DNA from: Candidatus Aminicenantes bacterium
Lineage (GTDB): Bacteria; Acidobacteriota; Aminicenantia; Aminicenantales; Saccharicenantaceae
DNA length: 61,360 bases
Reading direction: 5' to 3'
Assembly (NCBI GenBank): GCA_016867635.1
Contig: VGJC01000001.1
Coordinates: 1 to 61,360 of the forward strand
The notes beneath the pieces are model-generated. The model had not been told where the DNA came from, made no database searches, and saw nothing but the letters and a program-made list of their open reading frames with translations. Numbering within the stretch: the stretch's first letter is position 1; each line of letters opens with the position of its first letter. Below are positions 9,105-27,649 of this stretch, one piece after another. The position numbers were made by a program, and so were the translations under genes.

Positions 9105-10082
9105 TCAAGCCATGAGGCTGCAGATGGCGGCGACGTTGACCATGTCGTCGGCCGAGCAGCCCCGGCTGAGGTCGCAGTAGGGCTTGTTGAGACCCTGGAC
9201 GATGGGCCCGACGGCCTCGGCCCCGGCCAGGCGCTCGGTCAGCTTGTAGCCGATGTTGCCGGCGTCGAGGTCGGGGAAGACCAGGACGTTGGCCCGCCCG
9301 GCGACCGGGCTGCCCTTGCACTTGCGCTCGCCGATAGAAGCCACCAGGGCGGCGTCGGCCTGCATCTCGCCGTCGAGCATGAGGCCGGGGGCCTTCTCTT
9401 GGGCCATCTTGGTCGCCCGGATGACCTTGTCGACGTCCTCATGGGCGGCCGAGCCCTTGGTCGAGAACGACAGCATGGCCACCCGCGGCTCCTCGCCGGT
9501 CACGGCCTGGAAGTTCTTGGCCGAGGTCAGGGCGATATCGGCCAGCTGGGCGTCGGTCGGGTTGGGGACCACGGCGCAATCGGCGTAGCAGAGGAGCTTG
9601 TCCGGGAGGACCATGATGAAGTAGCTCGAGACCGTCGAGATGCCGGGGGCCGTGCCCACGGTGTGGATGGCCGCCCGGATGACGTCGCCGGTCGAGGACA
9701 TGTTGCCGCCGACCACGGCCCCGACCTTGCCGGTCGCGAGAAGAAGCCCGGCGTAGTAGAGCGGGCCGCGGGCGGCCTCGGCGCTCTGCTCGAGGGTCCA
9801 CCCCTTGCCCTTTCTCTTCTCGAAGAGGATGTTGACCAGCTCGTCCTTCGCCTCGTGCGTGCCGGGGTCGACGACCGGGATGCCGCCGATGTCGATCCCG
9901 TTGTCCTTGGCCACCTTGGCGATCGCCGCGGCGCCGCCGACGAGCCACGGCTGGGCGATCTTGCCGTCCCTGAGGATCAGGGCCGCCTTGAGCGTCCGGA
10001 CGTCCTCGGCGTCGGGGAAGGCGACCTTGTGGTTCTTCTTGGCGGCCTTGTCGCGGATGTCCCGGATGAAGGTATTTCCCAT
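9105..10082 (-). CDS. pta: Phosphate acetyltransferase (short Pta type)
   Basis: ORF 9105..10466 trimmed to MGNTFIRDI..., which has AAGGAG 7 nt upstream. C-terminal ...[14 protein letters not shown]...[10 protein letters not shown]...[51 protein letters not shown]... is the PTA_PTB signature. Confidence 0.85.
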
Positions 10083-10144
10083 CGTATGACTCCTTAAGAA
10101 TGATATCTCGTTCCCTTGGCCGGCCGCGGCCCCCCGAACGGAGG

Positions 10145-11659
<1,515 letters not shown>

Positions 11660-12493
11660 CTAGGGGAGCTCGGTCTCCTCGAAGCGGCAGAGCGACCGGA
11701 TCTCGTCGTCGAAATAGGATTTCCGGCGCATGAACAGCTCGGCCCAATCGACCTCGTGCCCGTCGAAGTCCGGCCCGTCGACGCAGGCGAACTTGGTCTT
11801 GCCGGCGGCCGTGCAGCGGCAGGCGCCGCACATCCCGGTGCCGTCGACCATGATGGGGTTGAGGCTGACGATGGTCTTGATGCCCAGGGATTTGGTGGCC
11901 TGGGCCGTGGAATACATGAGATAGGTGCAGCCGATGGAGATGACCCGGCCGACGGGGGCCTCGGCCTCGAGGACCTTGTCGAGCTCCTTGTGGACGAAAT
12001 CCCCGGAGCCCAGGGCATGGTCGCGCGACGAGAACAGGACCTTGTCGCAGACCGAGAGATAGCGGTCCTTCCAATAGACGAGGTAGTCGGCCTTGGCGTC
12101 GATGACGGCGATGACCTTGTTGCCGGCCGCCCGCAGGGCCCGGGCCGTCGGCCAGAGGGCCCCGATGCCGAAACACCCGGCGGTCAGGACCACGGTCCCG
12201 AAGGGGCCGATCTCCGAGGCCCGGCCCAGCGGTCCGACGAAGACCGGGACCTCGTCGCCGGCCCGCAGGGCGGCCAGCTTGCGCGTGCTCGTCCCGACCG
12301 ACAGGAAGACGGCCGTGACCGAGCCGCGGCCGGCATCCCAGTCGGCGATGGACAGGGGAATGCGCTCGCCGCGCTCGTCGGGCATGACGATGACGAACTG
12401 GCCCGGGCGGCACTTCCTGGCCACTTCGGGGGCCTCGAACTCGATGAGGTGGAGGTTGGGGACGAGACGCTCGCGGGTCAGGATCTTGGGCAT
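11660..12493 (-). CDS. NfnA / SudB-like ferredoxin-NADP reductase subunit (FAD, 2Fe-2S)
   Basis: 277 aa. ...GQFVIVMPDERGERIPLSIAD... is the FAD-binding beta-barrel and ...SLNPIMVDGTGMCGACRC...FACVDGPDF... is the 2Fe-2S motif of the PyrK/NfnA family. Confidence 0.8.
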   Translation of the reverse strand: MPKILTRERLVPNLHLIEFEAPEVARKCRPGQFVIVMPDERGERIPLSIADWDAGRGSVTAVFLSVGTSTRKLAALRAGDEVPVFVGPLGRASEIGPFGTVVLTAGCFGIGALWPTARALRAAGNKVIAVIDAKADYLVYWKDRYLSVCDKVLFSSRDHALGSGDFVHKELDKVLEAEAPVGRVISIGCTYLMYSTAQATKSLGIKTIVSLNPIMVDGTGMCGACRCTAAGKTKFACVDGPDFDGHEVDWAELFMRRKSYFDDEIRSLCRFEETELP

Positions 12494-14712
12494 CGTCTTC
12501 CTCGCACGAGCTTCAGGCTCTTGTTCTCGAGGGCCAGGTTCAGGCCCTTGTAATCGTCCGGGTCGCGGGGCGCGGCCCCGGCCGAAGCGGCGGCCCGGGC
12601 GGTGAGGGGGGCGTCGGTCACGGCCCCCGGCCAGGCCGGCTCCTCATGCAGGACCAGGCCCTGGTCCGGAAGGGCAGCCATCGCCAGGCCGCCGAAGGCG
12701 GCCACGGTCCGGGCCAGGTCCTTCCGCGCGTCCCCGCCCGAGGAGGGGAGGATCTCCGCGCGGTCCATCCTCGCGGCCAGGTCGGCCAGGATGCGCCAGC
12801 CGGGCCTGGCCTCGCCCGCCGGTTCGAGCGCCGGTCCGGTCAGCTGGACCCGGCCCTCGACGTTGACGAACGTCCCTTCCGTTTCGAACGATGTCGCTTC
12901 GGGCAGGACGACGTCGGCCGCGGCCGTGTTCTCGTCCTCGTAGCTTCCCTGGAAGACGACGAACCCGGCCGCTCCCGGTTCGAGCTTGGGTGAAGGGCCG
13001 GCCAAGTAGAAGGCCCGGACCTTGCGCCGGGAGGCGGTCTCGACCGGGAAGGCGCCGGCGATCTCGAGCCCGCCTCGCCCGTTGGCTTCCCCGTCCAGGG
13101 GGATGACGCGGCCGTCCGTCAGGGCGGCCAGGTTCAGGAGCTCGACGAGCGCGCTCCGCCCGCCGAAGGCCCCGAGGAAAGCCGGGCCGACGAGGTAGAA
13201 AGCCGGCTTTCGCGTCTCGAGGGCCTGGGCGATATCGAGGAGCGTTCCCCGGGTCAGGCCGAGGGACCGGAGCTTCTTCGGGCCGTCGATCTTGACGGCG
13301 GCGCCGCGGACCTTGCGGACGGCGGCCGCCAGGGACTTGAGGAGCGCTTGGCCTTTCCCCGCGGGGAGGGCGGCTCTGAGAGCGGCCCGGCTGGAGGCCC
13401 CCAGGGCCTCGGTGCCGATGTGGACCAATGTCGCCCCGTTCCGGACGGCCCGGGTGACCTCGACGCCCACGATGGGCTGGGTCTCGGGGAGGTCCTCTTC
13501 GAACACGACGATCGTGCCGGCCCGGCCGATGTCGGCCATCTGAAAATTCAGAGCCAGGGACTGCCCTGTGCGGCGCCCGTGAGCGCGGAGCGCGCCGGCG
13601 GCCGACCCTTCCCAGGGGCCGGCGATCGAGCGGGCCTTCAGGATGTCGGCGGCGAAACGGTGGAGGGCGAACAGGTCCTCGCAGGAGCTCTGGGCGGAGG
13701 CGGTCACGGCGATCTGCCCGTCTCCGAGCGCTTTGAGCCCCGCGGCGGCCGCGTTCAGGGCCTCGTCCCAGGAGGCGGCCTCGAGCCGGCCGTCCCGGCG
13801 GACCATCGGCCGGAGCAGACGGCGGGGATGGCCGACGGCGGTCTTCACCAGGAACCGGCCCTTGACGCAGGCCTGGCCGCGGTTGGCCGGGCCCTCGGGG
13901 TCGGGGAGGGTCTCGACGACGCGGCCGTCCCACAACCCGATCTTCAGCCGGCAGCCCTGGGCGCAAAAGGGGCAGAGGGCCTTGACCTCGGAATCGGGCA
14001 GACGTTCGTAGCGGACGCTCCGGTCGGCCAGAGAGCCGGTCGGGCAGACATCGACACAGGCCCCGCAGAAGCGGCAGCCGGAGTCGACGAGGCGGCGGTC
14101 CATGGCCGTGCCGATGACGGTCTCGGAACCGCGGGCGACGAAGGTCAGCACGGAGGCCCCCCTGACCTCAGAGCAGATCCGGACGCACCGGCCGCAGAGG
14201 ATGCAGAGGCTGTTGTCGCGGTCGATGAACGGGTCGTCCCGCCGGACCTCGCCCTCCCGGCGCAGGGCGGGGTAGGGGACCCGTTCGAGACCGACGGCCT
14301 CGACGGCCTTCTGCAGCTGGCAGCGGCCGTTGGCCGAGCAGAGCACGCAACCCGTGGGCTCGCCCGTCTTCCGGATGGTGGATTTGTAGTCGTCGCAGGA
14401 CGACTTCTCGTCGCAGACGAGGCAGGCATGGGGATGTTCGGCCAGGATGAGCTCGAGGATCCCCCGGCGAAGCGACTTGAGCTCCGGGGAATCGGTGCGG
14501 ACCTCGAGGCCCTCTTCGGCGAAGGTCGTGCAGGCCGGCATGTAGCCTCTCCGGTCCTTGACCTCGACGAGGCAGAGCCGGCAGGCCCCGTAGGGTTCGA
14601 GAGCGGGGTGCTCGCAGAGGGACGGGATGAGGATCCCGTTGGCCTTGGCGACCTCGAGGATGGTCGGGCGGCCATCGAAGACGAGCGGACGGCCGTCGAT
14701 GATGATGTTCAT
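12478..14712 (-). CDS. NuoG/Nqo3-like Fe-S protein (2Fe-2S, His-ligated 4Fe-4S, 2x 4Fe-4S, then a degenerate molybdopterin-oxidoreductase domain)
   Basis: ORF 12478..14886 trimmed to MNIIIDGRPLVF..., whose ATG overlaps the NuoF-like stop as ATGA at 14709-14712. Motifs seen: SLCEH...GACRLC...PAC; HPHACLVCDEKSSC; CILCGRCVRIC; CRFCGACVDVCP; CPFCAQGC...C; ...LPEATSFETEGTFVNVEGRVQ.... I see no H-cluster motifs and no FDH Cys/Sec-His site. Confidence 0.75.
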   Translation of the reverse strand: MNIIIDGRPLVFDGRPTILEVAKANGILIPSLCEHPALEPYGACRLCLVEVKDRRGYMPACTTFAEEGLEVRTDSPELKSLRRGILELILAEHPHACLVCDEKSSCDDYKSTIRKTGEPTGCVLCSANGRCQLQKAVEAVGLERVPYPALRREGEVRRDDPFIDRDNSLCILCGRCVRICSEVRGASVLTFVARGSETVIGTAMDRRLVDSGCRFCGACVDVCPTGSLADRSVRYERLPDSEVKALCPFCAQGCRLKIGLWDGRVVETLPDPEGPANRGQACVKGRFLVKTAVGHPRRLLRPMVRRDGRLEAASWDEALNAAAAGLKALGDGQIAVTASAQSSCEDLFALHRFAADILKARSIAGPWEGSAAGALRAHGRRTGQSLALNFQMADIGRAGTIVVFEEDLPETQPIVGVEVTRAVRNGATLVHIGTEALGASSRAALRAALPAGKGQALLKSLAAAVRKVRGAAVKIDGPKKLRSLGLTRGTLLDIAQALETRKPAFYLVGPAFLGAFGGRSALVELLNLAALTDGRVIPLDGEANGRGGLEIAGAFPVETASRRKVRAFYLAGPSPKLEPGAAGFVVFQGSYEDENTAAADVVLPEATSFETEGTFVNVEGRVQLTGPALEPAGEARPGWRILADLAARMDRAEILPSSGGDARKDLARTVAAFGGLAMAALPDQGLVLHEEPAWPGAVTDAPLTARAAASAGAAPRDPDDYKGLNLALENKSLKLVRGRRCPRS

Positions 14713-16529
14713 GACCGTCCCCCCTCTCCCGAGTGTTTCGAGACGGCCCCGACCTTGGGCGGGCAGATGTTCATGCAAGCCCCGCACTTGATGCAGGCGG
14801 CCTGGTCGATGACGTGGACCTGTTTCCGCTCGCCGGTGATGGCGTTGACGGGGCAGGCCTTGAGGCAGAGCAGGCAGCCGACGCACTTGTCGGGCTCGAT
14901 GTCATACGTGATCAGGTTCTTGCAGACCTTGGCCGGGCAGCGGCGCTCGCGGATATGGGCCTCGTATTCGTCCCGGAAATAGCGCAGGGTGGACAGGACG
15001 GGGTTGGGCGCCGTCTGCCCCAACCCGCAGAGAGCCCCCTGCTTGACCGTCAACGCCAGCTCCTCGAGCTTGCGAAGGTCGTCGTCGGTGCCCTGGCCGC
15101 CGGCGATCCGGGCCAGGATGCCGGCCATCTGCCGGGTGCCGAGACGGCACGGGGCGCACTTGCCGCAGGACTCCTCCTCCGTGAAGCGCAGGAAGTAGAG
15201 GGCGATGTCCACCATGCAGGTGTCCTCGTCCATGACGATCATGCCTCCGGAGCCCATCATGGCCCCGGCCTTGGTCAGGCTCTCGTAATCGACGGGCAGG
15301 TCCAGGAGGTCGCGGGGGACGCAACCGCCCGAGGGCCCGCCGATCTGGATGGCCTTGAACTCCCGGCCTCCGGGGATGCCGCCGCCGATCCCGTAGACGA
15401 TCTCCCGCAGGCGGATGCCCATGGGGACCTCGACCAACCCGGTGTTGTTGATCTTGCCGACCAGCGAGAAGACCTTGGTGCCCTTGCTCGTCCCGGTCCC
15501 CAGCCCGGCGAACCAGGCCGCGCCCCGGCTGATGATGGACGGCACGTTGGCCCAGGTCTCGACGTTGTTGATGACGGTCGGCCGCCCCCAGAGCCCGTGC
15601 TCAGCGGGGTAGGGAGGTCTCTGCCGCGGATAGGCCCGCTGGCCTTCGATCGAGGCGATGAGAGCGGTCTCTTCGCCCGAGACGAAGGCCCCGGCGCCGC
15701 GGACGATCTCGAGGTCGAAGTCGAAGCCGGTGCCGAGGATGTCCTTGCCGAGCAGCCCGAGCTCGCGGGCCTGGCCGAGGGCGACGCCCATGCGCTGGAC
15801 GGCCAGGGGATACTCGTCTCGGATATAGAGGAAGCCCTTCTCGGCCCCGATGGCCCGGGCCCCGATGACCATGCCTTCGACCACGGCGTGGGGGTCGGCC
15901 TCCAGGACCGAGCGGTCCATGAAAGCCCCGGGGTCGCCCTCGTCGCCGTTGCAGATGATGTACTTCGGCTCAGCCTTCTCCCGCCGGCAGAGGGCCCATT
16001 TCCGGCCCGTAGGGAAGCCGGCCCCGCCGCGGCCCCTGAGACCCGACGCGGAGATCTCGGCGATGATCCCTTCCGGGGTCATCTCCGTCAGGGCCTTGGC
16101 CATGGCCTCGTAGCCGTCATAGGCGATGTACTCCTCGATCTTCTCCGGGTCGATGCGGCCCCGGTTGCGGAGGACGATGAGGCGCTGGTGCTTGAAGAAG
16201 TCGATGTCCGTCATCTTGGGGACGGGCTTGGCTTCGGCCGGCGGGACGTACATGAACTTCTGGACCGGGCGGCCCTTGACCAGGTGTTCCTCGACGAGGA
16301 AGGGAACGTCCTCGGGCGTCAGGCGCTGATAGAAGATGCCCTCCGGATGGACCACGACGATGGGGCCCCTCTCGCAGAACCCGTTGCAGCCGGTGGCCAC
16401 GACCAGGACCTCGTCCTGGAGGCCGCGCCCGGCGACCTCCTTCTCCAAGGCCTCCTTGAGCGTGAACGCGCCGCAGGAGACGCAGCCCGTCCCGGCGCAG
16501 ACAAGCAGGTGAGTGCGATGGTGTTTCAA
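14709..16529 (-). CDS. NuoF-like NAD(P)H-binding flavoprotein of HydB/HndC type
   Basis: 606 aa. It has an N-terminal thioredoxin-like 2Fe-2S domain (LLVCAGTGC...GCNGFCERGP), the NuoF core (GLRGRGGAGFPTGRKW, NGDEGDPGAF, SCGKCAPCR) and C-terminal 2x 4Fe-4S motifs (CVGCLLCLKACP, CIKCGACMNICP). Confidence 0.9.
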   Translation of the reverse strand: MKHHRTHLLVCAGTGCVSCGAFTLKEALEKEVAGRGLQDEVLVVATGCNGFCERGPIVVVHPEGIFYQRLTPEDVPFLVEEHLVKGRPVQKFMYVPPAEAKPVPKMTDIDFFKHQRLIVLRNRGRIDPEKIEEYIAYDGYEAMAKALTEMTPEGIIAEISASGLRGRGGAGFPTGRKWALCRREKAEPKYIICNGDEGDPGAFMDRSVLEADPHAVVEGMVIGARAIGAEKGFLYIRDEYPLAVQRMGVALGQARELGLLGKDILGTGFDFDLEIVRGAGAFVSGEETALIASIEGQRAYPRQRPPYPAEHGLWGRPTVINNVETWANVPSIISRGAAWFAGLGTGTSKGTKVFSLVGKINNTGLVEVPMGIRLREIVYGIGGGIPGGREFKAIQIGGPSGGCVPRDLLDLPVDYESLTKAGAMMGSGGMIVMDEDTCMVDIALYFLRFTEEESCGKCAPCRLGTRQMAGILARIAGGQGTDDDLRKLEELALTVKQGALCGLGQTAPNPVLSTLRYFRDEYEAHIRERRCPAKVCKNLITYDIEPDKCVGCLLCLKACPVNAITGERKQVHVIDQAACIKCGACMNICPPKVGAVSKHSGEGGRS

Positions 16530-16950: not shown

Positions 16951-17496
16951 TCACGTCGTCCCGATGCTTTCGAGTCCGGACCGGAGCGTCCGCCGGACCT
17001 CCCTGATCAGCTCCGGCCCGGCCGCGGACCCTTCGCACGATCGTGCGAAGAACGCATGGCTGGCGAACCTGAAGGCCCGGCCGTCCCGCCGATGGCGGTA
17101 ACGGAAATCGATCTCGGGATGGCCGAGGACCAACATTATCATCGTTTCGGCCATGCTCGTCAAGGGTTGCCGATCGATGTGGCGGAAACGGAACCGGGCC
17201 GCGACCCGCGTGCCCTTTCCCGGGGTCGAGCGGACGGTCAGGTCGCCGCCGCTCTGCCGGGCCGCCTGGGCCAGGAGCGGCAGGCCCAGCCCGGTCCGCT
17301 TTTGGCCGGTCGTGAAGAACGGGTCGAGGGCCCGCCGGCAAACCTCCTCGGTCATCCCCCGCCCGTCGTCCGAGACCCGGATGGTCAGAAGGCCCCGGGA
17401 CGCGTTCTCGTTGATGAGGATGACGACGCGCGTCGCCCCGGCGTTCACGGCGTTCTCGGCCAGGTCGAGGACGTGGAGGGACAGATCTTCCATCAT
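16951..17496 (-). CDS. GHKL (histidine-kinase-like) ATPase domain protein
   Basis: 181 aa with N-box LAENAVNAG, G1 DDGRGM and G2 GLGLPL. It has no HisKA/DHp region. The start ATGATG overlaps the PHP stop (ATGA). Confidence 0.75.
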   Translation of the reverse strand: MMEDLSLHVLDLAENAVNAGATRVVILINENASRGLLTIRVSDDGRGMTEEVCRRALDPFFTTGQKRTGLGLPLLAQAARQSGGDLTVRSTPGKGTRVAARFRFRHIDRQPLTSMAETMIMLVLGHPEIDFRYRHRRDGRAFRFASHAFFARSCEGSAAGPELIREVRRTLRSGLESIGTT

Positions 17497-18239
17497 GGGG
17501 CGAGGATCCTCCGGCCGCCGAGGCCGGCCAAGGCCTTGCGGACCTCCCCGAGGGTGGGAGAGGCGAGCAGAAAACCGGTCTGCCGGCTGCCGATCTCCTC
17601 GGGACGGTGGGCGTCGGAAAAACGGACCAGCGGATAGCCCGGAGGGGGAATGGACGGCAGCCCGGTTTCCGCGGCCCCGGCGGGAGAGAAGACCTCGAGG
17701 GCGTCAAAAGCCAGGTCCGGGGGGATGAACCCGAGCTGGGAGATGACGCTGAAGGAGCCCCGGTCGTAGTGGGCGGCGACGGCCAGCCCCCCGTGCGCGT
17801 GGATGAGGTCGACGATCTCGTGGACCGTCAGCTCGGTGGCTCCCATGAGGAAAAAGGGGTGGAATCCGGTGACCTCGTCGGCTTCGTTGACCAGGACCTG
17901 GTCCTCGGCGTAGGCCTTCTTCGGACCGCCGTCGGGCAGGCCCCGATGAACGGCCTCGAGCACGGGCCGGACATCGTCCATGGCGTCGAACAGGGCCAGG
18001 ACGTGGACTTCCTCCGCCGAGACGATCTCCATCCCGGGCAGGACGGTGAGGCCTGTCCCGCCGGCCGCCCGCATGGCCGCTTCGGCGTTCTCCGCGGCGT
18101 TGTGGTCGCAGACGGCGATGATATCGAGGCCGACCTCCCGGGCCCGGCCGACGATGGCCCGTGGCGACATCGTCAGCTCGCCGCACGGCGAAAGGCAGGA
18201 GTGGATGTGGAGGTCGGCCCGGTAGCGCCCGAGGGTCAT
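17493..18239 (-). CDS. PHP-domain phosphoesterase
   Basis: ORF 17493..18443 trimmed to MTLGRYRADLHIHSCLSPCG.... The HxH metal motif and later ...AVCDHN... and ...VAAHYD... fit the PHP family. The ATG overlaps the preceding DRTGG stop as ATGA at 18236-18239. Confidence 0.8.
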   Translation of the reverse strand: MTLGRYRADLHIHSCLSPCGELTMSPRAIVGRAREVGLDIIAVCDHNAAENAEAAMRAAGGTGLTVLPGMEIVSAEEVHVLALFDAMDDVRPVLEAVHRGLPDGGPKKAYAEDQVLVNEADEVTGFHPFFLMGATELTVHEIVDLIHAHGGLAVAAHYDRGSFSVISQLGFIPPDLAFDALEVFSPAGAAETGLPSIPPPGYPLVRFSDAHRPEEIGSRQTGFLLASPTLGEVRKALAGLGGRRILAP

Positions 18240-18580
18240 CGCGCCCCGCGCAGGCCGAGCTGGTGAAGCCTTCCGCTCAGCTCGAAGGCCCCGAGGGAGG
18301 TCCCGAGCAGCGGCAGGCGTTGCTCCTCGGACTGACGGACGGTGTCTTCGGACGGCTCCCGGCCGTTGGTGATGATGACGCCGGCCAGGTCCTTGAGGAC
18401 GGCCACGGCGACGACGTTGGGATGGATCTGGATGGTGATCCACAGGTCGTCCTTTCGGCCGTGGGCCATGACGTCGCTCATCAGGTCCCCGATGTAGGCC
18501 CCCGCGACCGGGCGGTCGAGGCCGCCGCGGCCGGCGTGGACCTTGAGCTCGAGTTGCCGGACGATGTCGGAAAGCGTCAT
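18236..18580 (-). CDS. DRTGG-domain protein (small, stand-alone)
   Basis: ORF 18236..18955 trimmed to MTLSDIVRQLELKV.... It is about 114 aa and a paralogue of 20295..20633, sharing ...DLMSDV... and ...RLPLL.T.L..FE.... The ATG overlaps the upstream stop (ATGA). Confidence 0.6.
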   Translation of the reverse strand: MTLSDIVRQLELKVHAGRGGLDRPVAGAYIGDLMSDVMAHGRKDDLWITIQIHPNVVAVAVLKDLAGVIITNGREPSEDTVRQSEEQRLPLLGTSLGAFELSGRLHQLGLRGAR

Positions 18581-19851
18581 CGGATCTCCTTTCGGAAGAG
18601 GGGGCAGTCGTCGAGGTCGGCCAGGCCGCGGACGATGTCCTCGGCCAAGGTCAGGCAGTCGGGGGCGCCGCAGGCCCCGCAGTCCTTTCCGGGCAGGAGC
18701 CGAAGGAGCTCGTCCCGGCGGGTGGCCTTCCGGATGGCCTCGACGGGATCGGGGTCGAGCAGCGGCACTTCGATCGGCTTGACGGGGTGCTGGAACGAGA
18801 GGAAGTTCTCGCGGACGAAGGGGCCGAAGTCGGCCCGCTCGACACCCACCTTCTCGCTGGCCATGGAGACCAGCCGGAGAATGCGGCTCTTGGTGATGAA
18901 GCGGTTCTCGACGGCCAGCGGGCCGCCGACGCAGCCGTCCGGGCAGACCATGCACTCGAGGTAGTCGACGTCCTTGAGCTGGCCGGCCTCGACCTGGTCG
19001 AGGACCCGGATCGTGTCCCGGACCCCCGACACGGCGATCGTCCGGTGCTTCTTGAGGCCTCGCGTCTCGCCTCCCGAGAGCGACCAGCCGAGGCCCAGGC
19101 CGCTGAAGACGTTCGCCGGGAACAGGTGGTGCATGATCGTGCTCTCGTCGATCTTCTTCAGGGCCTGGAGGAGCCGGGGGTAGATGTCGCGGATGGAGAT
19201 GGCCCCGTCCAGGTAGGACTTGGCCATGGTCGCCGGCCTATTGATGGAGACGATCTTGGCCGGGCAGGGAGTGATGTGGATGAGGCCGATCTCTTCGGGC
19301 GCGAGCTTCAGGACGCCGGGCAGGGTGGCCCGCAGGATCTTGGCGGCGATCTCCCGGGGCGGCTCGATGGGCACGATGAGCCCGCAGAGGGACGGGTAGC
19401 GCCGCTGGATGAGCCGTACGACGACCGGGCAGGTCGTCGAGATCAGCGGCCGGGGCTGCGGGTGGGCGGCCAGGTACTCCTCGGCGGCCGAGGCGTAGAG
19501 CTCGCAGATCGAGCTGAGCTCGAAGACCTGGTCGAAGCCCTCGTGGCGGAGGGCCGACAGGACCTCGTTGGGCGTCGTATCGTTGCCGAACTGGCCGTAG
19601 AGCACGGTGGCCGGGATGGCGACCTTGTACCGGAAGGCCCGCAGGTCGGAGAAGGATGTCGTTCGGGATTCGATGGCGTCGTTGGGGCAGTACCGGATGC
19701 ACTCGCCGCAGTCGATGCACAGGTCGCCGAGGACCTGGGCCTTGTTGTCGCGGACCCGGATGGCCCGCGTCGGACAGGCCGTCAGGCAGTGGACGCAGCC
19801 GCCGCACTTTTCGAGGTTGACGCGGATGGGATGGTCGGGGCTCCGGCTCAC
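18577..19851 (-). CDS. [FeFe]-hydrogenase-like protein, sensory/regulatory type (2x 4Fe-4S, H-cluster domain, C-terminal 4-Cys domain)
   Basis: 424 aa. Motifs: CGGCVHCLTACP and CIDCGECIRYCP; H-cluster-like STTCP (canonical TSCCP), ITPCPAK (MPCxxK) and ECMVCPDGCVGG (ExMxCxxGCxxG); C-terminal CGACGAPDC...x16...C. Confidence 0.75.
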   Translation of the reverse strand: MSRSPDHPIRVNLEKCGGCVHCLTACPTRAIRVRDNKAQVLGDLCIDCGECIRYCPNDAIESRTTSFSDLRAFRYKVAIPATVLYGQFGNDTTPNEVLSALRHEGFDQVFELSSICELYASAAEEYLAAHPQPRPLISTTCPVVVRLIQRRYPSLCGLIVPIEPPREIAAKILRATLPGVLKLAPEEIGLIHITPCPAKIVSINRPATMAKSYLDGAISIRDIYPRLLQALKKIDESTIMHHLFPANVFSGLGLGWSLSGGETRGLKKHRTIAVSGVRDTIRVLDQVEAGQLKDVDYLECMVCPDGCVGGPLAVENRFITKSRILRLVSMASEKVGVERADFGPFVRENFLSFQHPVKPIEVPLLDPDPVEAIRKATRRDELLRLLPGKDCGACGAPDCLTLAEDIVRGLADLDDCPLFRKEIR

Positions 19852-20291
19852 GACGGCCTCCCGTCCCGGGCGAAGGTCATCTCCAGCCGCGTGCCCCGGC
19901 CCGGCTCGGAGACGATCCGGAAGACGTCGGCGTTCCTCTTGATGTTCGGCAGGCCCATGCCGGCCCCGAAGCCGAGCTCGCGCATCTCTCTGGTCGCGGT
20001 CGAGTAGCCCTCGGTCATGGCCAGCTCGATGTCGGGGATGCCCGGGCCGTGGTCGTCGACGATGATCGTGACGTCCGCGGGCGTCACGGCCAGGCGGACC
20101 GTCCCCTGGAACGCGTACATGATGACGTTCATCTCGGCCTCGAAGGAGGCGATGGCCGCCCTGCGGACGACCTGGACATCGAGCCCCAGCTCCTTCAGCA
20201 GGTCCTTGATGCGCCGGGAGACCTCACCCGCGCGGGCGAATTCCCCGCCCTTGAGAGAGTACTCCTGACGGTAACACAGGTCCTCTTCCAT
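19848..20291 (-). CDS. RsbW/SpoIIAB-like GHKL ATPase (anti-sigma-factor-type Ser/Thr kinase fold)
   Basis: 147 aa. ...ASFEAEMNVIMYAF...VDDHGPGIPD...GFGAGMGLPNI...EPGRGTRLEM are the N, G1 and G2 boxes of a single-domain HATPase_c protein. Confidence 0.7.
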   Translation of the reverse strand: MEEDLCYRQEYSLKGGEFARAGEVSRRIKDLLKELGLDVQVVRRAAIASFEAEMNVIMYAFQGTVRLAVTPADVTIIVDDHGPGIPDIELAMTEGYSTATREMRELGFGAGMGLPNIKRNADVFRIVSEPGRGTRLEMTFARDGRPS

Positions 20292-20294
20292 GAC

Positions 20295-20633
20295 TCACGC
20301 GTCCGACCGCGGCGATCCTATCCGGATGCAGGCCTCGAACGTCGACAAGGGAGTCGAAATGAGCGGCAGGCGGTTGTCCCGGGCCTCGCCGACGACGGCG
20401 GCCGAGGGCCGCTTCCCTTGGACGAACACGACGGCCGCGACGTCGGCCACGGCGGCCGTGCTGACGACATGGCCGTTGACGAGGCCGGTGATCAGGAGCT
20501 CCCCCGGGCCCGTGAAGGCCAGGACGTCGCTCATGAGGTCGGAGGCGAAGACCCTCGTGAATTCGAGGCCCAGGTCGCTTCCCGGGGTCAGCAGCTCCCC
20601 GTCGAGGCGATCCAGGACGTTCCTCAGGTTCAT
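20295..20633 (-). CDS. DRTGG-domain protein (small, stand-alone)
   Basis: 112 aa and a paralogue of 18236..18580. The start overlaps the NuoE-like stop by 4 nt. Confidence 0.6.
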   Translation of the reverse strand: MNLRNVLDRLDGELLTPGSDLGLEFTRVFASDLMSDVLAFTGPGELLITGLVNGHVVSTAAVADVAAVVFVQGKRPSAAVVGEARDNRLPLISTPLSTFEACIRIGSPRSDA

Positions 20634-21127
20634 CCGCCGGCCTCCGTGCCGTCCGCCGACGCCGGGGCCGGCTTGAGCGTTTCCAGCACGGCGTTGGCCT
20701 TGGTCTCGTTCATCTGGCCGTAGTAGCGGCCGTCGGCGACGACCAGCGGGGCCAGGGCGCAGGCGCCCAGGCAGTTGACCCGTTCCAGCGTGTATTCGCC
20801 GTCGGCCGAGGTCTGGCCGGCCGCGATCCCGAGCTTGCGCTCGAAGTGCTCGAGGACCGCCCCTCCTCCGCGGACGTGGCAGGCCGTTCCCATGCAGACC
20901 GTGCAGATGTGGCGGCCGCGCGGCCGCAGGCTGAAGGACTTGTAGAACGTGGCGACGCTGTAGACGTGGGCCGGCGAGATGTCAAGCTCCCGGGCCACGT
21001 CGTCGAGCGTTTCGGAGGACAGCCAGCGGAACCGGTCCTGGATGTCCTGGAGGATGGGGATCAAGGCCCGCTTCTCGCCGTGATACCGGGCGACGACGTC
21101 CCGGACGACCGTGGGTTCCGAGCTCAT
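20630..21127 (-). CDS. NuoE-like [2Fe-2S] subunit (HydC/HndA type)
   Basis: ORF 20630..21256 trimmed to MSSEPTVVRDVV..., with GGAGAAGGAG upstream. ...ALIPILQDIQDRFRWL...ATFYKSF...HICTVCMGTACHVRGG...VNCLGACALAP... is the NuoE 2Fe-2S signature. Confidence 0.85.
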   Translation of the reverse strand: MSSEPTVVRDVVARYHGEKRALIPILQDIQDRFRWLSSETLDDVARELDISPAHVYSVATFYKSFSLRPRGRHICTVCMGTACHVRGGGAVLEHFERKLGIAAGQTSADGEYTLERVNCLGACALAPLVVADGRYYGQMNETKANAVLETLKPAPASADGTEAGG

Positions 21128-21201: not shown

Positions 21202-21786
21202 TCAGCGGCAGCGCTGCCAGTCCGATTCGCTGAACATCCGGTCCAGCTGCTTCCACAGCTGCTTGACGTCGCAGGTCATGACGATCAGGTCCTGGGACCC
21301 GCCCTTGATATCCTTGACGAAATCGGGCATCAGCGAATCGTCACGGAAGCCCAGCCGCCGGAAGATCTTCTGGGCCCCGACCTGCGGCCGCATCATCTTG
21401 GCGACGATCGTCTGGAGGTTGTTCTGGACGGCGATGAAGTAGAGCTCGCGGATCATGATCGCCCCGAGCCCCCTCTGCTGGAAAGGCCGGGCCACGATCA
21501 GGCGGATCTCGCCCTGGTGCTTGCTCCAGGCCTCGCCCGACAGCTCCAGGGCGCCGCTGGCGATGATCAGGCCGCCGTGGACGGCGACGACCCGGATGTC
21601 ATCGCCGGACTCGACCCGCCGGAGCCGCCGTTGCACGGCCTTGCGGTCGGTGACGTCGAACTTGAGGTACTTGCGGTCCTCCATGGGAAGAGCCAGGAAG
21701 AACTCCATCAACAGGTCGAGGTCCTCCATCATCAGCCTCCGGATGGTGACCTCCGTGCCGTCCTTCAGTTTTTCGATCTTGTCCAT
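21202..21786 (-). CDS. GNAT family N-acetyltransferase
   Basis: 194 aa. ...IVARPFQQRGLGAIMIRELYFIAV... is the Q/RxxGxG/A acetyl-CoA-binding motif. Confidence 0.7.
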   Translation of the reverse strand: MDKIEKLKDGTEVTIRRLMMEDLDLLMEFFLALPMEDRKYLKFDVTDRKAVQRRLRRVESGDDIRVVAVHGGLIIASGALELSGEAWSKHQGEIRLIVARPFQQRGLGAIMIRELYFIAVQNNLQTIVAKMMRPQVGAQKIFRRLGFRDDSLMPDFVKDIKGGSQDLIVMTCDVKQLWKQLDRMFSESDWQRCR

Positions 21787-21835: not shown

Positions 21836-21864
21836 ACTCTATGACCTCGCCGGAAAATTGTCAA
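21836..21864 (-). promoter_or_regulatory. Sigma-70-type promoter upstream of the GNAT gene (TTGACA-17-TAGAGT)
   Basis: The reverse complement of 21859-21864 is TTGACA and that of 21836-21841 is TAGAGT, with a 17-nt spacer, about 50 nt upstream of the GNAT ATG. Confidence 0.5.
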
Positions 21865-21937
21865 GACGGCGGTCTTGGTTCGTCCACGGCTCGGACGGCC
21901 CGCGGGAGATTGACAGGGCTTTGCCGGGAGTGGTATC

Positions 21938-23977
21938 GTGAGCCGAAGAACAACGATGTCACTGCGGGAAATCGAACGACGCTTCCATGACCTCCCGCTG
22001 AGGCGCAAGCTCATACTCAGCTTCCTGGCCGCTATCGCCGTCGCGGGCTTGATCACCCTCTATGTCGGCACCCGGCTCCAGCACCGGACGATCATCTCCC
22101 TGGCCGAAGCCAAGGTCCGGCACGACCTGGCCTCGGCCTGGATGGTCTACAACGAAAGACTGGCCGGGATCCGTGACACCATCCGGCTCAGCGCCGACCG
22201 GGATTTTCTCCGGGATGCGCTCTGGTCCGGCTTTCTCGGCGACGTCGGGGCCCGGCTCGACCGCATCCGCCGGGAGCTCGGCCTTGACATCTTGACCCTG
22301 ACCGACGGCCGGGGACAGGTCGTCGTCCGCTCGCGCCGTCCCGAGATCTCCGGGGACGACCAGTCCGCCGACCCCTTTGTCATGCAGGCCCTCCGGGGAG
22401 GGTCCCCGGGGGGGACCCAGATCGTCCCCCGGGCGGAGCTCCTCAAGGAAGGACAGGACCTCGCCGATCGCGCCTACTTCGAGTTCGTGCCCACGGCCAA
22501 GGCGGCCGAGCGCGCGGGGACCTACGAGGAGAACGGCATGATGCTCAAGGCCTCGGCCCCTGTCGTCGGGCGGGACGGGGAGGTCATCGGGGTTCTCTAC
22601 GGCGGACTGCTTTTCAACAGGGACTACAGGCTGGTCGACAAGGTCAAGGACATCGTCTTCAAAGGCGAGAAGTACAAGGGCCACGATATCGGCACCGTGA
22701 CCCTGTTCCAGGACGACCTGCGCATCTCGACCAACGTCATGGACGACCAGGGGAAACGGGCCGTCGGCACCCGGGTCTCCCAGGAGGTCAACCAAGCGGT
22801 CCTGAAACAGGGAGTGTCCTATCTCGGGCGGGCCTTCGTCGTGACGGCCTGGTACATCACGGCCTACGAGCCCATCCGCGACATCGACGGCCGCATCGTC
22901 GGCATCCTCTATGTGGGGATGCTGGAGCGGCCTTACATCGACCTCCGCAACCGGGTCATCGCCACCTTCATCGCCATCGCCGGCCTGGGCGTCATCCTTA
23001 TCCTGGGCCTGCTGTCCATGATCGCCGGACGGATCACCCGGCCGCTCGGCGTCATGGTCGAGGCTACGGACAGGATCGCCCGGGGGGATCTCGCCGGCCG
23101 CCTGGACATCGAAGGGCGCGACGAGATCGGCCAGCTGGCCCAGGCCTTCAACCGGATGACCGGGGACCTTCATGCCGCCCACAACGACCTGACGCAGTGG
23201 GGCCGGACGCTGGAGCAGAGGGTCGAGGAAAGGACGCGGCAGCTCCGCGAAACCCAGGATCAGCTCATCCAATCCGAGAAGCTGGCCTCCCTGGGGAAGA
23301 TGGCCGCCGGCGTCGCCCACGAGATCAACAACCCCCTGACCTCCATTCTCATCAACACCCATCTCCTTCTCGAGCGATGCGAGGACCACGCCCTGGAGAG
23401 GGAACAGCTGACCATGATCGCCGACGAGACGACCCGGTGCGCCCAGATCGTCGGCGGCCTCCTGGATTTCGCCCGACAGACCCCGGCCACAACGGTCCAG
23501 GCGGACATCGACGAGATCGTCGAACGGACGGTCCAGATCCTGGAGATGCAGGCCTCGGTCCGAAACATCCGCATCGAGCGCCGTCTCCACCGCTCCTTGC
23601 CCCGCATCGCCATCGACAAGAACAAGATCCAACAGGTCTTTTCCAACCTGATCATCAACGCCTGTGAGGCCATGCCCGGGGGAGGGGTGCTGACCGTCTC
23701 CAGCCGCCTGAGCCGCGACGGCACGCACATCGAGATCGCCTTTTCCGATACGGGAGTGGGCATTTCTCCCGCGAATATGCCGCGGCTTTTCGATCCGTTC
23801 TTCACGACCAAGAGAATGGGAACGGGTCTGGGCCTGGCCGTCAGCTACGGGATCGTCCGCCAGCGCGGGGGGACGATCGAGGTCCAAAGCGAGGTCAAGC
23901 GGGGGTCCGTGTTCACGGTCCGCATCCCGCTGGAGGAAAATATCGAGGAAACGGGACGAGAGGAGAACGGATCATGA
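21938..23977 (+). CDS. Sensor histidine kinase (TM, periplasmic Cache-like domain, TM, HAMP, HisKA, HATPase)
   Basis: 679 aa with two TM segments (LILSFLAAIAVAGLITLYVG; FIAIAGLGVILILGLLSMIAG), HAMP (...GQLAQAFNRMTGDL), the H-box GVAHEINNPLT, then the N box and G1/G2 (DTGVGI, GTGLGLAV). The start is GTG 21938 with GGGAG 7 nt upstream; an alternative ATG lies at 21956. Confidence 0.9.
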   Translation: MSRRTTMSLREIERRFHDLPLRRKLILSFLAAIAVAGLITLYVGTRLQHRTIISLAEAKVRHDLASAWMVYNERLAGIRDTIRLSADRDFLRDALWSGFLGDVGARLDRIRRELGLDILTLTDGRGQVVVRSRRPEISGDDQSADPFVMQALRGGSPGGTQIVPRAELLKEGQDLADRAYFEFVPTAKAAERAGTYEENGMMLKASAPVVGRDGEVIGVLYGGLLFNRDYRLVDKVKDIVFKGEKYKGHDIGTVTLFQDDLRISTNVMDDQGKRAVGTRVSQEVNQAVLKQGVSYLGRAFVVTAWYITAYEPIRDIDGRIVGILYVGMLERPYIDLRNRVIATFIAIAGLGVILILGLLSMIAGRITRPLGVMVEATDRIARGDLAGRLDIEGRDEIGQLAQAFNRMTGDLHAAHNDLTQWGRTLEQRVEERTRQLRETQDQLIQSEKLASLGKMAAGVAHEINNPLTSILINTHLLLERCEDHALEREQLTMIADETTRCAQIVGGLLDFARQTPATTVQADIDEIVERTVQILEMQASVRNIRIERRLHRSLPRIAIDKNKIQQVFSNLIINACEAMPGGGVLTVSSRLSRDGTHIEIAFSDTGVGISPANMPRLFDPFFTTKRMGTGLGLAVSYGIVRQRGGTIEVQSEVKRGSVFTVRIPLEENIEETGREENGS

Positions 23978-24381
23978 CAGATACCGGCAAGAAGGCCATC
24001 CTGGTGGTCGACGACGAGATCACGGTCTGCAAGAGCATCCGGAGCGCGCTCGTCCAGGAGAACTACGACATCGATTTGGCCCTCAGCGGGGAGGAGGCCC
24101 TGCAGAAGGAGCAGGTCAAGAGATACGACGTGATGATCGTCGACCTGATGATGCCCGGTATCAGCGGGCTCGACCTCCTCCGGTCGATCAAGACGACGAA
24201 CCCCGGGGTCCAGGTCATCATGGTCACCGGTTATCCGACGATGAAGAACACCCTCCAGGCCATGCAGATCGGGGCCTTCGATTTTCTGCCGAAGCCCTTC
24301 CTGCCGGCCGACCTCCGCAGCCTCGTCGCCAAGGCCCTGGCCGCGGGCGAGGGCCAGGGGAGAGCGTCAGGAGGCTCGTGA
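23974..24381 (+). CDS. Response regulator, receiver domain only (CheY-like)
   Basis: 135 aa. ILVVDDE...[11 protein letters not shown]...MVTGY...DFLPKPF. The start overlaps the kinase stop (ATGA). There is no output domain. Confidence 0.9.
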
Positions 24382-25245
24382 CAGGGCGTCCCGCAGCCGG
24401 TCCCCGATCTCGGCCGGGCTGACCGCGACGTAAGCCCCGGCGGCCCGCAGGGCGTCCATCTTCTCCTTGGCCGTCCCTTTGCCCCCGGCGATGATGGCCC
24501 CGGCGTGGCCCATCCGGCGGCCCGGAGGCGCGGTCTGGCCGGCGATGAAGCCGACGACCGGCTTGGGGAATTCCCCGGAAATGTAGGCGGCGGCCTCCTC
24601 CTCGGCCGTGCCGCCGATCTCGCCGATGAGGATGACGGCCTCGGTCTCGGGGTCCTCCCGGAACAGCTTCAGCAGCTCGACGAACTTGTGCCCGACGATC
24701 GGGTCCCCGCCGATGCCCACGGCCGTCGACTGGCCGAGCCCCTGCCGGGTGACCTGCTGGACGGCCTCGTAGGTCAGGGTCCCGGACCGGGAGATGATGC
24801 CGACGCTGCCGCGCTTGTGGATGGGACCCGGCATGATGCCGATCTTGGCCTTTCCGGGCGAGATGAGCCCGGGCGTGTTCGGCCCGATGAGGACCGTCCC
24901 CCGTTCCTTGAGGAGGGCTTTGACCTTGATCATATCGAAGGTCGGGATGCCCTCGGTGATGCAAACGACCAGGCGGACGCCCGCGTCGGAGGCCTCCATG
25001 ATGGCGTCCGCGCCGGCGAAGGGCGGGACGAAGATGGCCGCCGCGTCCGCCCCCTCGGCCCGGACGGCCTCGGCCACCGTGTTGAAGACGGGCACCCCGA
25101 TATGGGTCGTGCCGCCCTTGCCGGGCGTCGCCCCGGCCACGACCTTGGTCCCGTACTCGATCATCCGCTGGGCGTGGAAGGTGCCTTCGCCGCCCGTGAT
25201 CCCCTGGACGACGACCCTGGTCTTTTCGTCGATGAGAATGCTCAT
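24367..25245 (-). CDS. sucD: Succinyl-CoA synthetase (ADP-forming) alpha subunit
   Basis: 292 aa. [14 protein letters not shown]..., ...SRSGTLTYE..., ...GHAGAII... (phosphohistidine loop). Confidence 0.95.
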
Positions 25246-25266
25246 GTCGATCTCCTTGCCGGGCCC

Positions 25267-26424
<1,158 letters not shown>

Positions 26425-26683: not shown

Positions 26684-27649
26684 ATGGCTAAGCCGAAATT
26701 CGCTATGTATTGGGCGGCCAGTTGCGGCGGCTGCGAGATCGCTTTCCTCGACATCCGGGAGAAGATCCTGGACTTCGACGCGGCGGCGGACCTCATCTTC
26801 TGCCCCTGCCTCATGGACACCAAATACAAGGACATCGAGGCCATGCCCGACGGCTCCATCGACGTGACCCTGTTCAACGGGGGGATCCGCAGCGAGGAGA
26901 ACCTCCACATCGCCAAGCTCCTCCGGAAGAAATCCAAGGTCCTGGTGGCCTTCGGCTCCTGCGCTACCGAGGGGTGCATCCCCGGGCTGGCCAATCTGAC
27001 GACCAAGAGCGAGATCCTGGATTACGTCTACCGCCGGTCGCCGTCCGTTGTCGCCGGCAACCAGGTCCTGCCCCAGCTTTCGACCGAAACCCCGTCCGGG
27101 ACCCTGACCCTGCCGGACATGTTCGAGACCTTGCGGACCCTGGACCAGGTCTTGGATGTCGACTACCGGATGCCCGGATGTCCGCCGGTGGCCGAGCAGA
27201 TCTGGGCCGTCGCCGAAGCGGCCCTGACCGGGAACCTGCCTCCGAAAGGCTCCCTGGTCGGGGTCAATCCCAAGACCGTCTGCGACGAGTGCGAGCGGAC
27301 CAAGGAAGAGAAGAAGATCAAGGCCTTCCGCCGCCCCCATCTCGTCGACCCGCGGGACATCGACCCTGTCAAATGCCTGCTGGAGCAGGGCCTCATCTGC
27401 AACGGCCCGGCCGTCCACGCCGGCTGCGGGGCCCTCTGCCCTCAGGTCAACCTGGGGTGCCGCGGCTGCTACGGGCCGGCCGAAGGCATCCAGGACGTCG
27501 GGGCCAAGCTGGCCGGGGCCATCGCTTCGGTCATCGACAGCGACGACCCCGCCGAGATCGACAGGATCGTCGGGGAGATCCTCGACCCCGTCGGGACGTT
27601 CTACCGGTTCGGCCTGGCCGGTTCCATCGTCGGGAGGCGCATCATATGA
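26684..27649 (+). CDS. [NiFe] hydrogenase small subunit, group 3 (MvhG-like)
   Basis: 321 aa. MAKPKFAMYWAASCGGCEIAFLD..., ...GSCATEGCIPG..., ...MPGCPP..., with a C-terminal Cys cluster CDEC...C...C...GC...C..C. Confidence 0.85.
   Translation: MAKPKFAMYWAASCGGCEIAFLDIREKILDFDAAADLIFCPCLMDTKYKDIEAMPDGSIDVTLFNGGIRSEENLHIAKLLRKKSKVLVAFGSCATEGCIPGLANLTTKSEILDYVYRRSPSVVAGNQVLPQLSTETPSGTLTLPDMFETLRTLDQVLDVDYRMPGCPPVAEQIWAVAEAALTGNLPPKGSLVGVNPKTVCDECERTKEEKKIKAFRRPHLVDPRDIDPVKCLLEQGLICNGPAVHAGCGALCPQVNLGCRGCYGPAEGIQDVGAKLAGAIASVIDSDDPAEIDRIVGEILDPVGTFYRFGLAGSIVGRRII

Follow-up and report, generated by a model that had tools for sequence, protein, structure and literature searches.

The 424-residue protein whose gene is described here, on the reverse strand of a 61,360-nucleotide stretch of contig VGJC01000001.1 from Candidatus Aminicenantes (the window; 68% GC host), is, judged from its sequence, very probably a group D (M2e) [FeFe]-hydrogenase and an ordinary member of that described family. 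Its gene is the third of a conserved five-gene core, in the order DRTGG–GHKL(SpoIIAB-like)–HydS–DRTGG–PHP, which occurs in many phyla and is not peculiar to the window. An H2-sensing or regulatory role of the protein (hereafter HydS) is probable, and the reading that it belongs to a group D sensor module regulating the linked NuoE/NuoF-type (Bfu) electron-bifurcating NADH/ferredoxin enzyme is, by a modest measure, the one we favour.

Domains were called with Pfam and NCBIfam profiles on the window proteins, and PAS domains were sought at E ≤ 0.01. Residues were mapped using an HMMER alignment to CrHydA1 and a MAFFT alignment to Clostridium pasteurianum CpI, with the CpI sequence checked against PDB entry 1FEH. 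Relatives were collected from a scan in which one genome stood for each GTDB species and which yielded 587 hits; the homologue search gave 346 group D-like clusters at 50% identity and E ≤ 1e-30. The best 80 loci, spanning Aminicenantes, Thermoanaerobaculia, Eisenbacteria, Zixibacteria, Ignavibacteriales, Deltaproteobacteria, an Atrimonadaceae bacterium, Selenomonadales and many Clostridia, were used for neighbourhood analysis by tblastn with the window proteins and unsupervised clustering of all open reading frames (ORFs); the denominators 78, 75 and 73 given below are the loci with enough flank to evaluate. Family conservation was scored in 137 representatives, with a closer set of 39 homologues.

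In Pfam, HydS matches two Fer4 domains, Fe_hyd_lg_C (residues 77-311, E 1.4e-27) and PF04060 'FeS' (386-417), and its two N-terminal [4Fe-4S] motifs span C16-C26 and C45-C55. The best match among solved hydrogenases has an E value of 3e-21. The AlphaFold2 model, which served fold assignment only and is of moderate quality (predicted local distance difference test (pLDDT) 72; loops 236-261 and 333-348 poor), matches [FeFe]-hydrogenase structures with template-modelling (TM) scores of 0.60-0.66. The original prediction had described a sensory-type homologue that keeps the H-cluster ligands and loses the proton path, and had named alignment to CpI and CrHydA1 as its check; this alignment confirmed both the ligand assignment and the substitutions. 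The four H-cluster Cys are kept in both alignments (C300 = C141, C355 = C196, C499 = C303, C503 = C307, CpI numbering first), and the CpI alignment also places K358 at K199 and M497 at M301. C299 is replaced by T140 (STTCP), M353 by T194 (ITPC) and E361 by S202; the remainder of the proton path is lost with E279 in a gap, S319 replaced by V160 and R286 by A129, while E282 is a Glu in the window protein, at a position that is variable across the family. The lack of a PAS domain and the C-terminal CX2CX4C-X16-C arrangement (C391-x2-C394-x4-C399-x16-C416) were likewise as predicted, and the chain stops 8 residues past the last Cys.

Each H-cluster Cys is kept in 135-136 of the 137 representatives, and this near-invariance indicates conservation rather than chance. 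The four C-terminal Cys are invariant in the 39 close homologues. At position 353, 113 of the 137 have Thr or Ser, and Cys is not among the common residues listed for position 299. Retention of M497 is not family-wide; since the position varies even among close Aminicenantes homologues, the retained Met is incidental. One representative, P0227, is 4122 residues long and contains 14 stretches matching query residues ~91-207; this may be either an artefact of assembly or gene calling or a giant multi-H-domain-like protein.

These features are those by which group D, or M2e, was defined: two N-terminal [4Fe-4S] motifs, Cx2Cx4Cx16C and no PAS domain, C299 and all proton-transfer residues missing, M353 changed to Ser or Thr and M497 poorly conserved, in genes that share operons with group A hydrogenases and adjoin a histidine-kinase-like ATPase gene (Land 2020, PMC8163306). 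The HydDB class 'C1, histidine kinase-linked (putative)' is very probably the same cluster as group D. For comparison with the sole characterised member, TamHydS of Thermoanaerobacter mathranii, the query was rebuilt from a coding sequence damaged by optical character recognition in the supplement of PMC13104023, with the frameshifts repaired; C20 and C379 fall at their published places, although errors at a few residues close to the repairs are possible. The window protein is 40% identical to TamHydS end to end (E 9e-109), versus 24% to CpI; by these pairwise comparisons it would probably cluster with TamHydS. The two proteins have the same domain order, without PAS, and both have lost C299 and carry Ser at E361; at M353 TamHydS has Ser and the window protein Thr, both hydroxyl residues, and at the variable M497 they have Leu and Met, respectively. 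The TamHydS gene likewise has a histidine-kinase-like ATPase gene adjacent and lies upstream of NuoEF-type genes. The loci differ in that the enzyme beside TamHydS has a group A3 HydA, whereas the window has a NuoG-like/Nfn-like A module, and in that the window has NuoE relocated ahead of the cassette and no adjacent AraC gene.

Other classes were considered and set aside. Assignment to the prototypical or bifurcating group A was rejected on account of STTCP, ITPC, the missing pathway residues and a TIGR02512 score of 83 bits, far below the NCBIfam cut-off of 406; the score for B1 is similarly low (111 vs 450 bits). Group C (M2f), which comprises TmHydS of Thermotoga maritima, Ruminococcus albus HydS and T. 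saccharolyticum HfsB, also keeps the ligands and loses the proton-relay Cys, has a C-terminal four-Cys cluster, lies near bifurcating hydrogenases and has a proposed sensory role. It was rejected for want of a PAS match in the 424-residue protein; group C has a C-terminal PAS domain together with Ser/Thr kinase and PP2C-type partners, whereas the window protein stands with DRTGG, SpoIIAB-like GHKL and PHP proteins. The hfsABCD/HfsB literature was not taken as precedent, since it concerns PAS-containing group C and not group D. The HoxBC/HoxJ/HoxA system of Ralstonia eutropha embodies the same concept, a low-turnover hydrogenase that is bound to a kinase-type protein and reports H2 (PMC5707799), but the metal site and fold of HoxBC are unrelated to those of group D, and the window cassette has no equivalent of HoxJ, a complete histidine kinase that includes PAS and DHp, or of the response regulator HoxA.

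The junction sequences bear out the tight coupling that had been noted for the window: four consecutive 4-nt overlaps (GTGA at GHKL1/HydS, ATGA at HydS/DRTGG2, DRTGG2/PHP and PHP/GHKL2) and a gap of 3 nt between the end of DRTGG1 and the GHKL1 gene. Beyond these, the NuoE stop overlaps the DRTGG1 start (ATGA) and NuoF/NuoG share an ATGA as well. Together with the coupling downstream, the NuoE/DRTGG1 overlap places the cassette inside an operon of ~12 genes, and with NuoE directly before it and NuoF after it, the cassette separates the C subunit gene of a NuoEF-type enzyme from the B subunit gene.

Co-conservation of the cassette genes with the hydrogenase homologue, on which the original prediction had been made to depend, was found in the neighbourhoods: the five-gene core is complete at 62 of 73 evaluable loci, DRTGG1 and GHKL1 each being present at 74 of 78 and DRTGG2 and PHP each at 67 of 75. 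Besides the core, only NuoE, GHKL2, the small ferredoxin, NuoF and HydA recur at the 80 loci, and the cassette nearly always adjoins NuoE/NuoF; families of transcription factors, sigma factors, STAS, PP2C or receivers each occur in no more than 6 of the 80 neighbourhoods. What had been called a six-gene cassette is better described as five plus one, the five core genes being conserved together while GHKL2 belongs to the NuoE/NuoF (HydC/HydB) operon. Elsewhere GHKL2 lies between the HydC (NuoE) and small ferredoxin genes; it adjoins 38 of 42 cassette-adjacent NuoE genes and none of 5 distal ones, and the small ferredoxin is co-conserved with GHKL2 and NuoF at 41 loci. This distribution marks GHKL2 and the ferredoxin as members of the Bfu side.

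Gene fusions follow the gene order of the cassette. DRTGG1-GHKL1 is fused at 4 loci, DRTGG-HydS in P0122 and P0214, GHKL-HydS in P0151, and HydS-DRTGG in P0135, P0137, P0154, P0191 and P0242; HATPase_c fusions have been reported for Hydrogenedentota 'C1' enzymes (PMC11406978). The natural fusions point to one physical complex of DRTGG, GHKL1 and HydS. A variant cassette occurs in Eisenbacteria and Thermoanaerobaculia (L004, 6732-7434; L012, 6818-7511), with two tandem DRTGG genes upstream of GHKL1-HydS and no DRTGG2 or PHP downstream; NuoE/NuoF and Nfn-like genes follow directly.

As had been predicted from the letters, the six proteins contain no DHp, receiver or DNA-binding domain, and Pfam finds no PAS, HisKA, Response_reg or HTH among them. 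A two-component relay was rejected on this ground and on the lack of conservation, at other loci, of the Cache-HAMP kinase and receiver encoded near the operon. PDB relatives of GHKL1 and DRTGG2 were found by family profiles; with single sequences, PDB searches gave no match for GHKL1 and one weak match for DRTGG2 (HPr kinase N-terminal domain, E 0.14). The predicted SpoIIAB/RsbW-like character of GHKL1 is probably right, its family profile retrieving SpoIIAB (1.6e-10) and RsbW (2e-4) ahead of the catalytic and ATP-binding (CA) domains of histidine kinases; the match to TIGR01925 (spIIAB) has E 7e-12 and 45 bits, below the 135-bit cut-off. Its motifs are intact and invariant in the family (N-box E51, E53, N55; G1 D80xG82xG84; G2 G107-G113), and it is a putative kinase. 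GHKL2 is a histidine-kinase CA domain without DHp (PDB profile match to the KinB CA domain, 1.5e-16), with invariant ATP-binding motifs and a conserved C-terminal extension of ~80 residues.

DRTGG1 carries the invariant motif S31-D-L-M-S35-D-V-L and T49-G-L; across the DRTGG1 and DRTGG2 families together, S35, V37 and T49 are the sole invariant residues. The AlphaFold2 model of DRTGG1 (pLDDT 91.6) was matched by Foldseek to the DRTGG domain of CBS-pyrophosphatase (CBS-PPase; TM 0.77) and to AF1212 (TM 0.83), and the DRTGG2 family profile finds AF1212, CBS-PPase and the HPrK N-terminal domain in the PDB. In the DRTGG1 model, S35 lies at the N-terminus of helix 34-40, right after strand 28-30, and strand 46-49 terminates in T49; these sites would suit either a phospho-acceptor or a phosphate- or ligand-binding role. 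The PHP protein conserves all metal ligands (H11, H13, D45, H46, E71, H79, H157, D209, H211); its family profile retrieves EndoQ (5e-13) and COG0613 PHP/RNase AM (~1e-10), with pAp phosphatase as the best NCBIfam match.

The set resembles the SpoIIAB-SpoIIAA-SpoIIE and RsbW-RsbV-RsbU modules in pairing a small GHKL Ser-kinase-like protein with small alpha/beta proteins, in having an invariant Ser at a helix N-terminus and in including a metal-dependent phosphoesterase. It differs from them in that the small proteins are DRTGG and not STAS, the phosphoesterase is PHP and not PP2C, no sigma factor is linked, and components are fused to the sensor. Canonical partner switching was rejected for these reasons, the DRTGG1 fold matching DRTGG, Mur-ligase N-terminal and HPrK N-terminal domains and no STAS domain, with neither PP2C nor sigma factor linked.

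The linkage of group D genes to 'kinases' and to bifurcating enzymes is already known since 2010-2016. M2e/group D genes have been described beside 'protein kinases' and upstream of bifurcating hydrogenases (PMC8163306, PMC3561251, PMC5037454), and in Carere 2012 'D M2e' genes are listed at a distance of five genes upstream of the trimeric bifurcating hydrogenases, namely Cthe_0335/0340-0342, TTE0887/0892-0894 and Csac_1857/1862-1864 (PMC3561251). In Firmicutes, the cassette precedes HydC-GHKL2-ferredoxin-HydB-HydA, and the HydA H-domain is real (~50% identity to CpI). Aminicenantes and Acidobacteriota-type loci have no group A HydA beside the cassette. At L003 (13626-17230), L013 and L020, NuoF is followed, in one operon with the cassette, by an FeS/flavoprotein A subunit and then by the [NiFe] small and large subunits, which share 48-70% identity with their window counterparts, with MvhD before the small subunit confirmed in L003; at L002 and L008, a [NiFe] large subunit gene lies just upstream of DRTGG1. 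Such Aminicenantes-type loci join an [FeFe]-type sensor to a [NiFe] enzyme. NfnB-like genes occur at L004, L012 and L054, accompanied at the first two by NuoG-like genes.

The window itself (Table 1) has a NuoG-like gene at the A position, followed by NfnA- and NfnB-like genes, and no [FeFe] HydA. Its NuoF/HydB-like subunit has an N-terminal [2Fe-2S] and two C-terminal [4Fe-4S] motifs. The NuoG-like subunit combines HydA-type N-terminal FeS domains with a molybdopterin-oxidoreductase-like domain, without an H-domain or a Molydop_binding domain, and scores 320 bits against NuoG (TIGR01973) versus 148 bits against Fdh-alpha in NCBIfam. The genes at this end of the operon (10145-14712) point more to a bifurcating complex of the Nfn-Bfu or Nqo type than to a hydrogenase.

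Table 1. Genes of the window operon in order of transcription, and the [NiFe] hydrogenase pair encoded on the other strand.
Feature	Coordinates	Strand	Domains and remarks
GNAT acetyltransferase	21202-21786	-	75 nt upstream of NuoE
NuoE/HoxE/HydC-like [2Fe-2S] subunit (BfuC)	20630-21127	-	Pfam 2Fe-2S_thioredx (E 1.8e-51); NCBIfam HoxE/NuoE
DRTGG1, 112 aa, stand-alone	20295-20633	-	Pfam PF07085
GHKL1, 147 aa, SpoIIAB/RsbW-like GHKL ATPase or Ser kinase	19848-20291	-	Pfam HATPase_c, HATPase_c_2
HydS, group D (M2e) putative sensory [FeFe]-hydrogenase, 424 aa	18577-19851	-	Pfam, alignments
DRTGG2, 114 aa	18236-18580	-	Pfam PF07085
PHP-family metal-dependent phosphoesterase, 248 aa	17493-18239	-	Pfam PF02811
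GHKL2, 181 aa	16951-17496	-	Pfam HATPase_c (E 1.8e-18)
Small thioredoxin-like [2Fe-2S] ferredoxin (HydD-like), 129 aa	16539-16928	-	Pfam/NCBIfam
NuoF/HydB-like flavin mononucleotide (FMN) subunit (BfuB architecture)	14709-16529	-	Pfam Complex1_51K, NADH_4Fe-4S, 2Fe-2S_thioredx (5-80), Fer4 (543-592)
NuoG-like subunit, BfuA position	12478-14712	-	Pfam Fer2_4, NADH-G_4Fe-4S_3, Fer4_Nqo3, Molybdop_Fe4S4, Molybdopterin
NfnA/PyrK-like	11660-12493	-	Pfam DHODB_Fe-S_bind
NfnB/GltD-like, last gene of the operon	10145-11641	-	Pfam Fer4_20, Pyr_redox_2
[NiFe] small subunit	26684-27649	+	Oxidored_q6
[NiFe] large subunit	27646-29103	+	4-nt overlap with small subunit

The [NiFe] hydrogenase of the window lies 5.5 kb from the operon, on the opposite strand; among solved structures its large subunit is closest to MvhA (1e-119), followed by the large subunit of the bifurcating NiFe-HydABCSL (2e-113). 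The pair has neither an MvhD nor a diaphorase gene next to it and may therefore use the NuoEFG-like/Nfn-like operon. Compared with HydABC/Bfu operons such as those of C. subterraneus (TTE0890-0894) and C. thermocellum (Cthe_0338-0342), where the order NuoE-GHKL2-small ferredoxin-NuoF is kept in the 38 of 42 cassette-adjacent cases given above, the window has the cassette inserted between BfuC and BfuB, and its A subunit is NuoG-like and followed by Nfn-like genes. The A. mobile NiFe-HydABCSL operon likewise holds 'HisK' and 'HydD' genes; its 'HydD, HydP, HisK' were assigned to 'maturation and/or regulation' and are not in the purified enzyme (PMC8880783). The sensor module thus seems, on comparative genomic grounds, to be tied to the BfuBC core and not to [FeFe] catalysis as such, a tie that we did not find stated in the searchable literature.

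TamHydS shows slow reversible H2 turnover, high H2 affinity, CO tolerance and an H2-induced change of secondary structure (PMC8163306, PMC13104023). By analogy, HydS of the window would bind a complete H-cluster and lack the fast proton relay, hence turn over H2 slowly, and would most likely report H2 partial pressure rather than carry metabolic flux. It would act as the input subunit of a stable complex with DRTGG1, GHKL1 and DRTGG2, to which PHP would be the obligate fifth component. H2 would reduce the H-cluster and the N-terminal [4Fe-4S] clusters, as it does in TamHydS, and a conformational change, as synteny and fusions suggest, would alter ATP binding or turnover of the tightly bound GHKL1. 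More speculatively, GHKL1 might then phosphorylate a DRTGG protein, or clamp it in a nucleotide-dependent manner, at the invariant Ser of D-L-M-S-D-V, and the PHP metallo-phosphoesterase might reset the state. The signal would act on the co-transcribed NuoE/NuoF (BfuBC) enzyme, probably via GHKL2 and the small ferredoxin and with no dedicated DNA-binding protein; in the window the target would be the NuoG-like/Nfn-like Bfu complex, possibly plus the nearby [NiFe] hydrogenase, and not an [FeFe] HydABC. This specific cycle of kinase, DRTGG Ser and PHP we regard as doubtful. The broader proposal, in which DRTGG1, the SpoIIAB-like GHKL, DRTGG2 and PHP would be the partners of group D HydS in a STAS-less, sigma-less device gating Bfu enzymes at the protein level, is put forward tentatively; with the same reserve, an H2-driven conformational change would lead in this device to ATP-dependent modification of the DRTGG Ser or to ligand exchange, and its targets would include [NiFe]-Bfu and Nfn-Bfu.

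Several points weigh against a sensor module of this kind. To our knowledge there is no in vivo evidence of H2 sensing by any group D enzyme, and the label 'sensory' is a hypothesis in the literature as well. We know of no RsbW-type kinase that phosphorylates a DRTGG protein; by Foldseek the DRTGG fold is not STAS, and the nearest relatives of PHP (EndoQ, RNase AM, pAp phosphatase) act on nucleic acids or nucleotides and are not protein phosphatases. The stable fusions are more in keeping with a constitutive complex than with a transient pairing of kinase and substrate, and the invariant Ser and Thr of the DRTGG proteins lie where Rossmann-like folds bind ligands and may serve small-molecule binding instead of phosphate acceptance. 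The H-cluster maturases HydE/F/G are not encoded in the 61-kb window, where no ORF of at least 200 residues has the CxxxCxxC radical-SAM motif of HydE/HydG. In TamHydS, H2 does not reduce the C-terminal cluster, so that one proposed relay drops out (Schumann 2026, PMC13104023), and the GHKL2-type 'HisK' and HydD are absent from purified NiFe-HydABCSL (PMC8880783).

Transcriptional output is the first alternative to be weighed. GHKL1 would be a true anti-sigma factor, and the H2 state of HydS, passed on via DRTGG and PHP, would decide the sequestration of a sigma factor encoded elsewhere and thereby transcription of the Bfu/hydrogenase operon. The relationship of GHKL1 to the anti-sigma F factor SpoIIAB and to RsbW, the AraC regulator flanking the TamHydS gene (PMC8163306) and the H2-dependent changes of NADH-hydrogenase activity in C. 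subterraneus cited by Carere 2012 (PMC3561251) would agree with such a switch. It is nevertheless unlikely, as no sigma factor, STAS antagonist, PP2C or DNA-binding protein is co-conserved in the 80 neighbourhoods, GHKL1 stays well below the spIIAB cut-off, its fusions to HydS and DRTGG argue for a fixed complex, and the gene layout implies that the window cassette is expressed stoichiometrically inside a structural operon. Where no group A HydA adjoins NuoEF, the group D protein could instead be a slow H2-forming or H2-consuming module of Bfu itself, tuned or assembled by the accessory proteins. TamHydS interconverts H+ and H2 reversibly near the thermodynamic potential (PMC8163306), electrons usually enter through the N-terminal 2x[4Fe-4S] domain (PMC13104023), and the NuoE, NuoF and NuoG-like proteins of the window operon have no other H-domain protein beside them. 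Against this, the cassette also lies beside bona fide HydA in Firmicutes and beside MvhD-[NiFe] genes in other Aminicenantes, so that its role is independent of the absence of a true catalytic hydrogenase; the proton pathway is lost family-wide, the rates measured for TamHydS are low (PMC8163306), and the window has its [NiFe] hydrogenase close by. We consider a catalytic subunit improbable.

A further reading assigns the accessory proteins to nucleotides: DRTGG would bind an adenine nucleotide or alarmone, PHP would hydrolyse it (pAp, Ap4A or oligonucleotide-type), the GHKL proteins would read ATP, and H2 and energy status would be combined via a small molecule, not protein phosphorylation. 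The relatives of PHP, which also include EndoQ-type phosphodiesterases, fit this, as does the occurrence of DRTGG domains in nucleotide-regulated CBS-PPases and in Pta regulatory regions; in the model, the invariant S35 and T49-G50 occupy the kind of place where phosphate is typically bound, namely the C-termini of strands and the N-terminus of a helix. In CBS-PPases, however, the nucleotides bind the CBS domains and not DRTGG, as we read the literature, a cyclase or synthetase that would make a messenger is missing from the cassette, and we know of no ligand for any stand-alone DRTGG protein. Little credence is accordingly given to this integration of energy charge. Least credible, and very improbable, is an assembly or repair set, in which the GHKL ATPases (in the manner of Hsp90/MutL), PHP, DRTGG and an H-cluster serving as redox reporter would serve to assemble the FeS-rich Bfu complex, to activate it or to shield it. 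Co-transcription and translational coupling with the structural genes would fit, but HydABC enzymes have been made heterologously without cassette genes, an invariant H-cluster site is hard to explain in a chaperone, and GHKL1 and GHKL2 resemble kinases and not Hsp90/MutL; the description of the A. mobile 'HydD, HydP, HisK' quoted above (PMC8880783) suits this reading as well as regulation.

Group D [FeFe]-hydrogenases are common in anaerobes, and a single member has been studied. The TamHydS paper of 2026 names the interaction partners as still to be identified and calls this a critical missing step (PMC13104023). The comparative data supply candidates, namely two DRTGG proteins, a SpoIIAB-like ATPase and PHP, backed by near-universal synteny and natural fusions, and indicate that the sensor module travels with the NuoE/NuoF bifurcating core generally, [NiFe]- and Nfn-type included. 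Model genomes contain the DRTGG and PHP partner genes, and H2 sensing and its transmission in fermenters and syntrophs thereby become experimentally addressable in C. thermocellum, Thermoanaerobacter and Caldicellulosiruptor. In the searchable literature, we found neither a discussion of the DRTGG/PHP partners with hydrogenases nor DRTGG work on H2 sensing, and the cassette locus tags appear in genome surveys only. The window instance itself adds no new principle and would leave a specialist unsurprised.

The only promoter-like site of the operon is a sigma70-like promoter at 21864-21836 that precedes the GNAT gene, which may be the first gene of the operon; a GNAT gene beside the cassette is not conserved in related loci. 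No Rex-box-like site occurs in the window at up to 3 mismatches. Divergent sigma70-like promoters (21836-21939) separate the operon from the gene of a Cache-HAMP-HisKA-HATPase sensor kinase (21938-23977, +), which is followed by a stand-alone receiver (23974-24381, +). The surroundings encode succinyl-CoA synthetase alpha/beta, acetate kinase and a MeaB-type GTPase, at 24367-26424 (-), 29112-30551 (+) and 7999-9033 (-), which is consistent with a fermentative metabolism of the acetate/propionate type; Pta is encoded at 9105-10466, after the Nfn-like genes.

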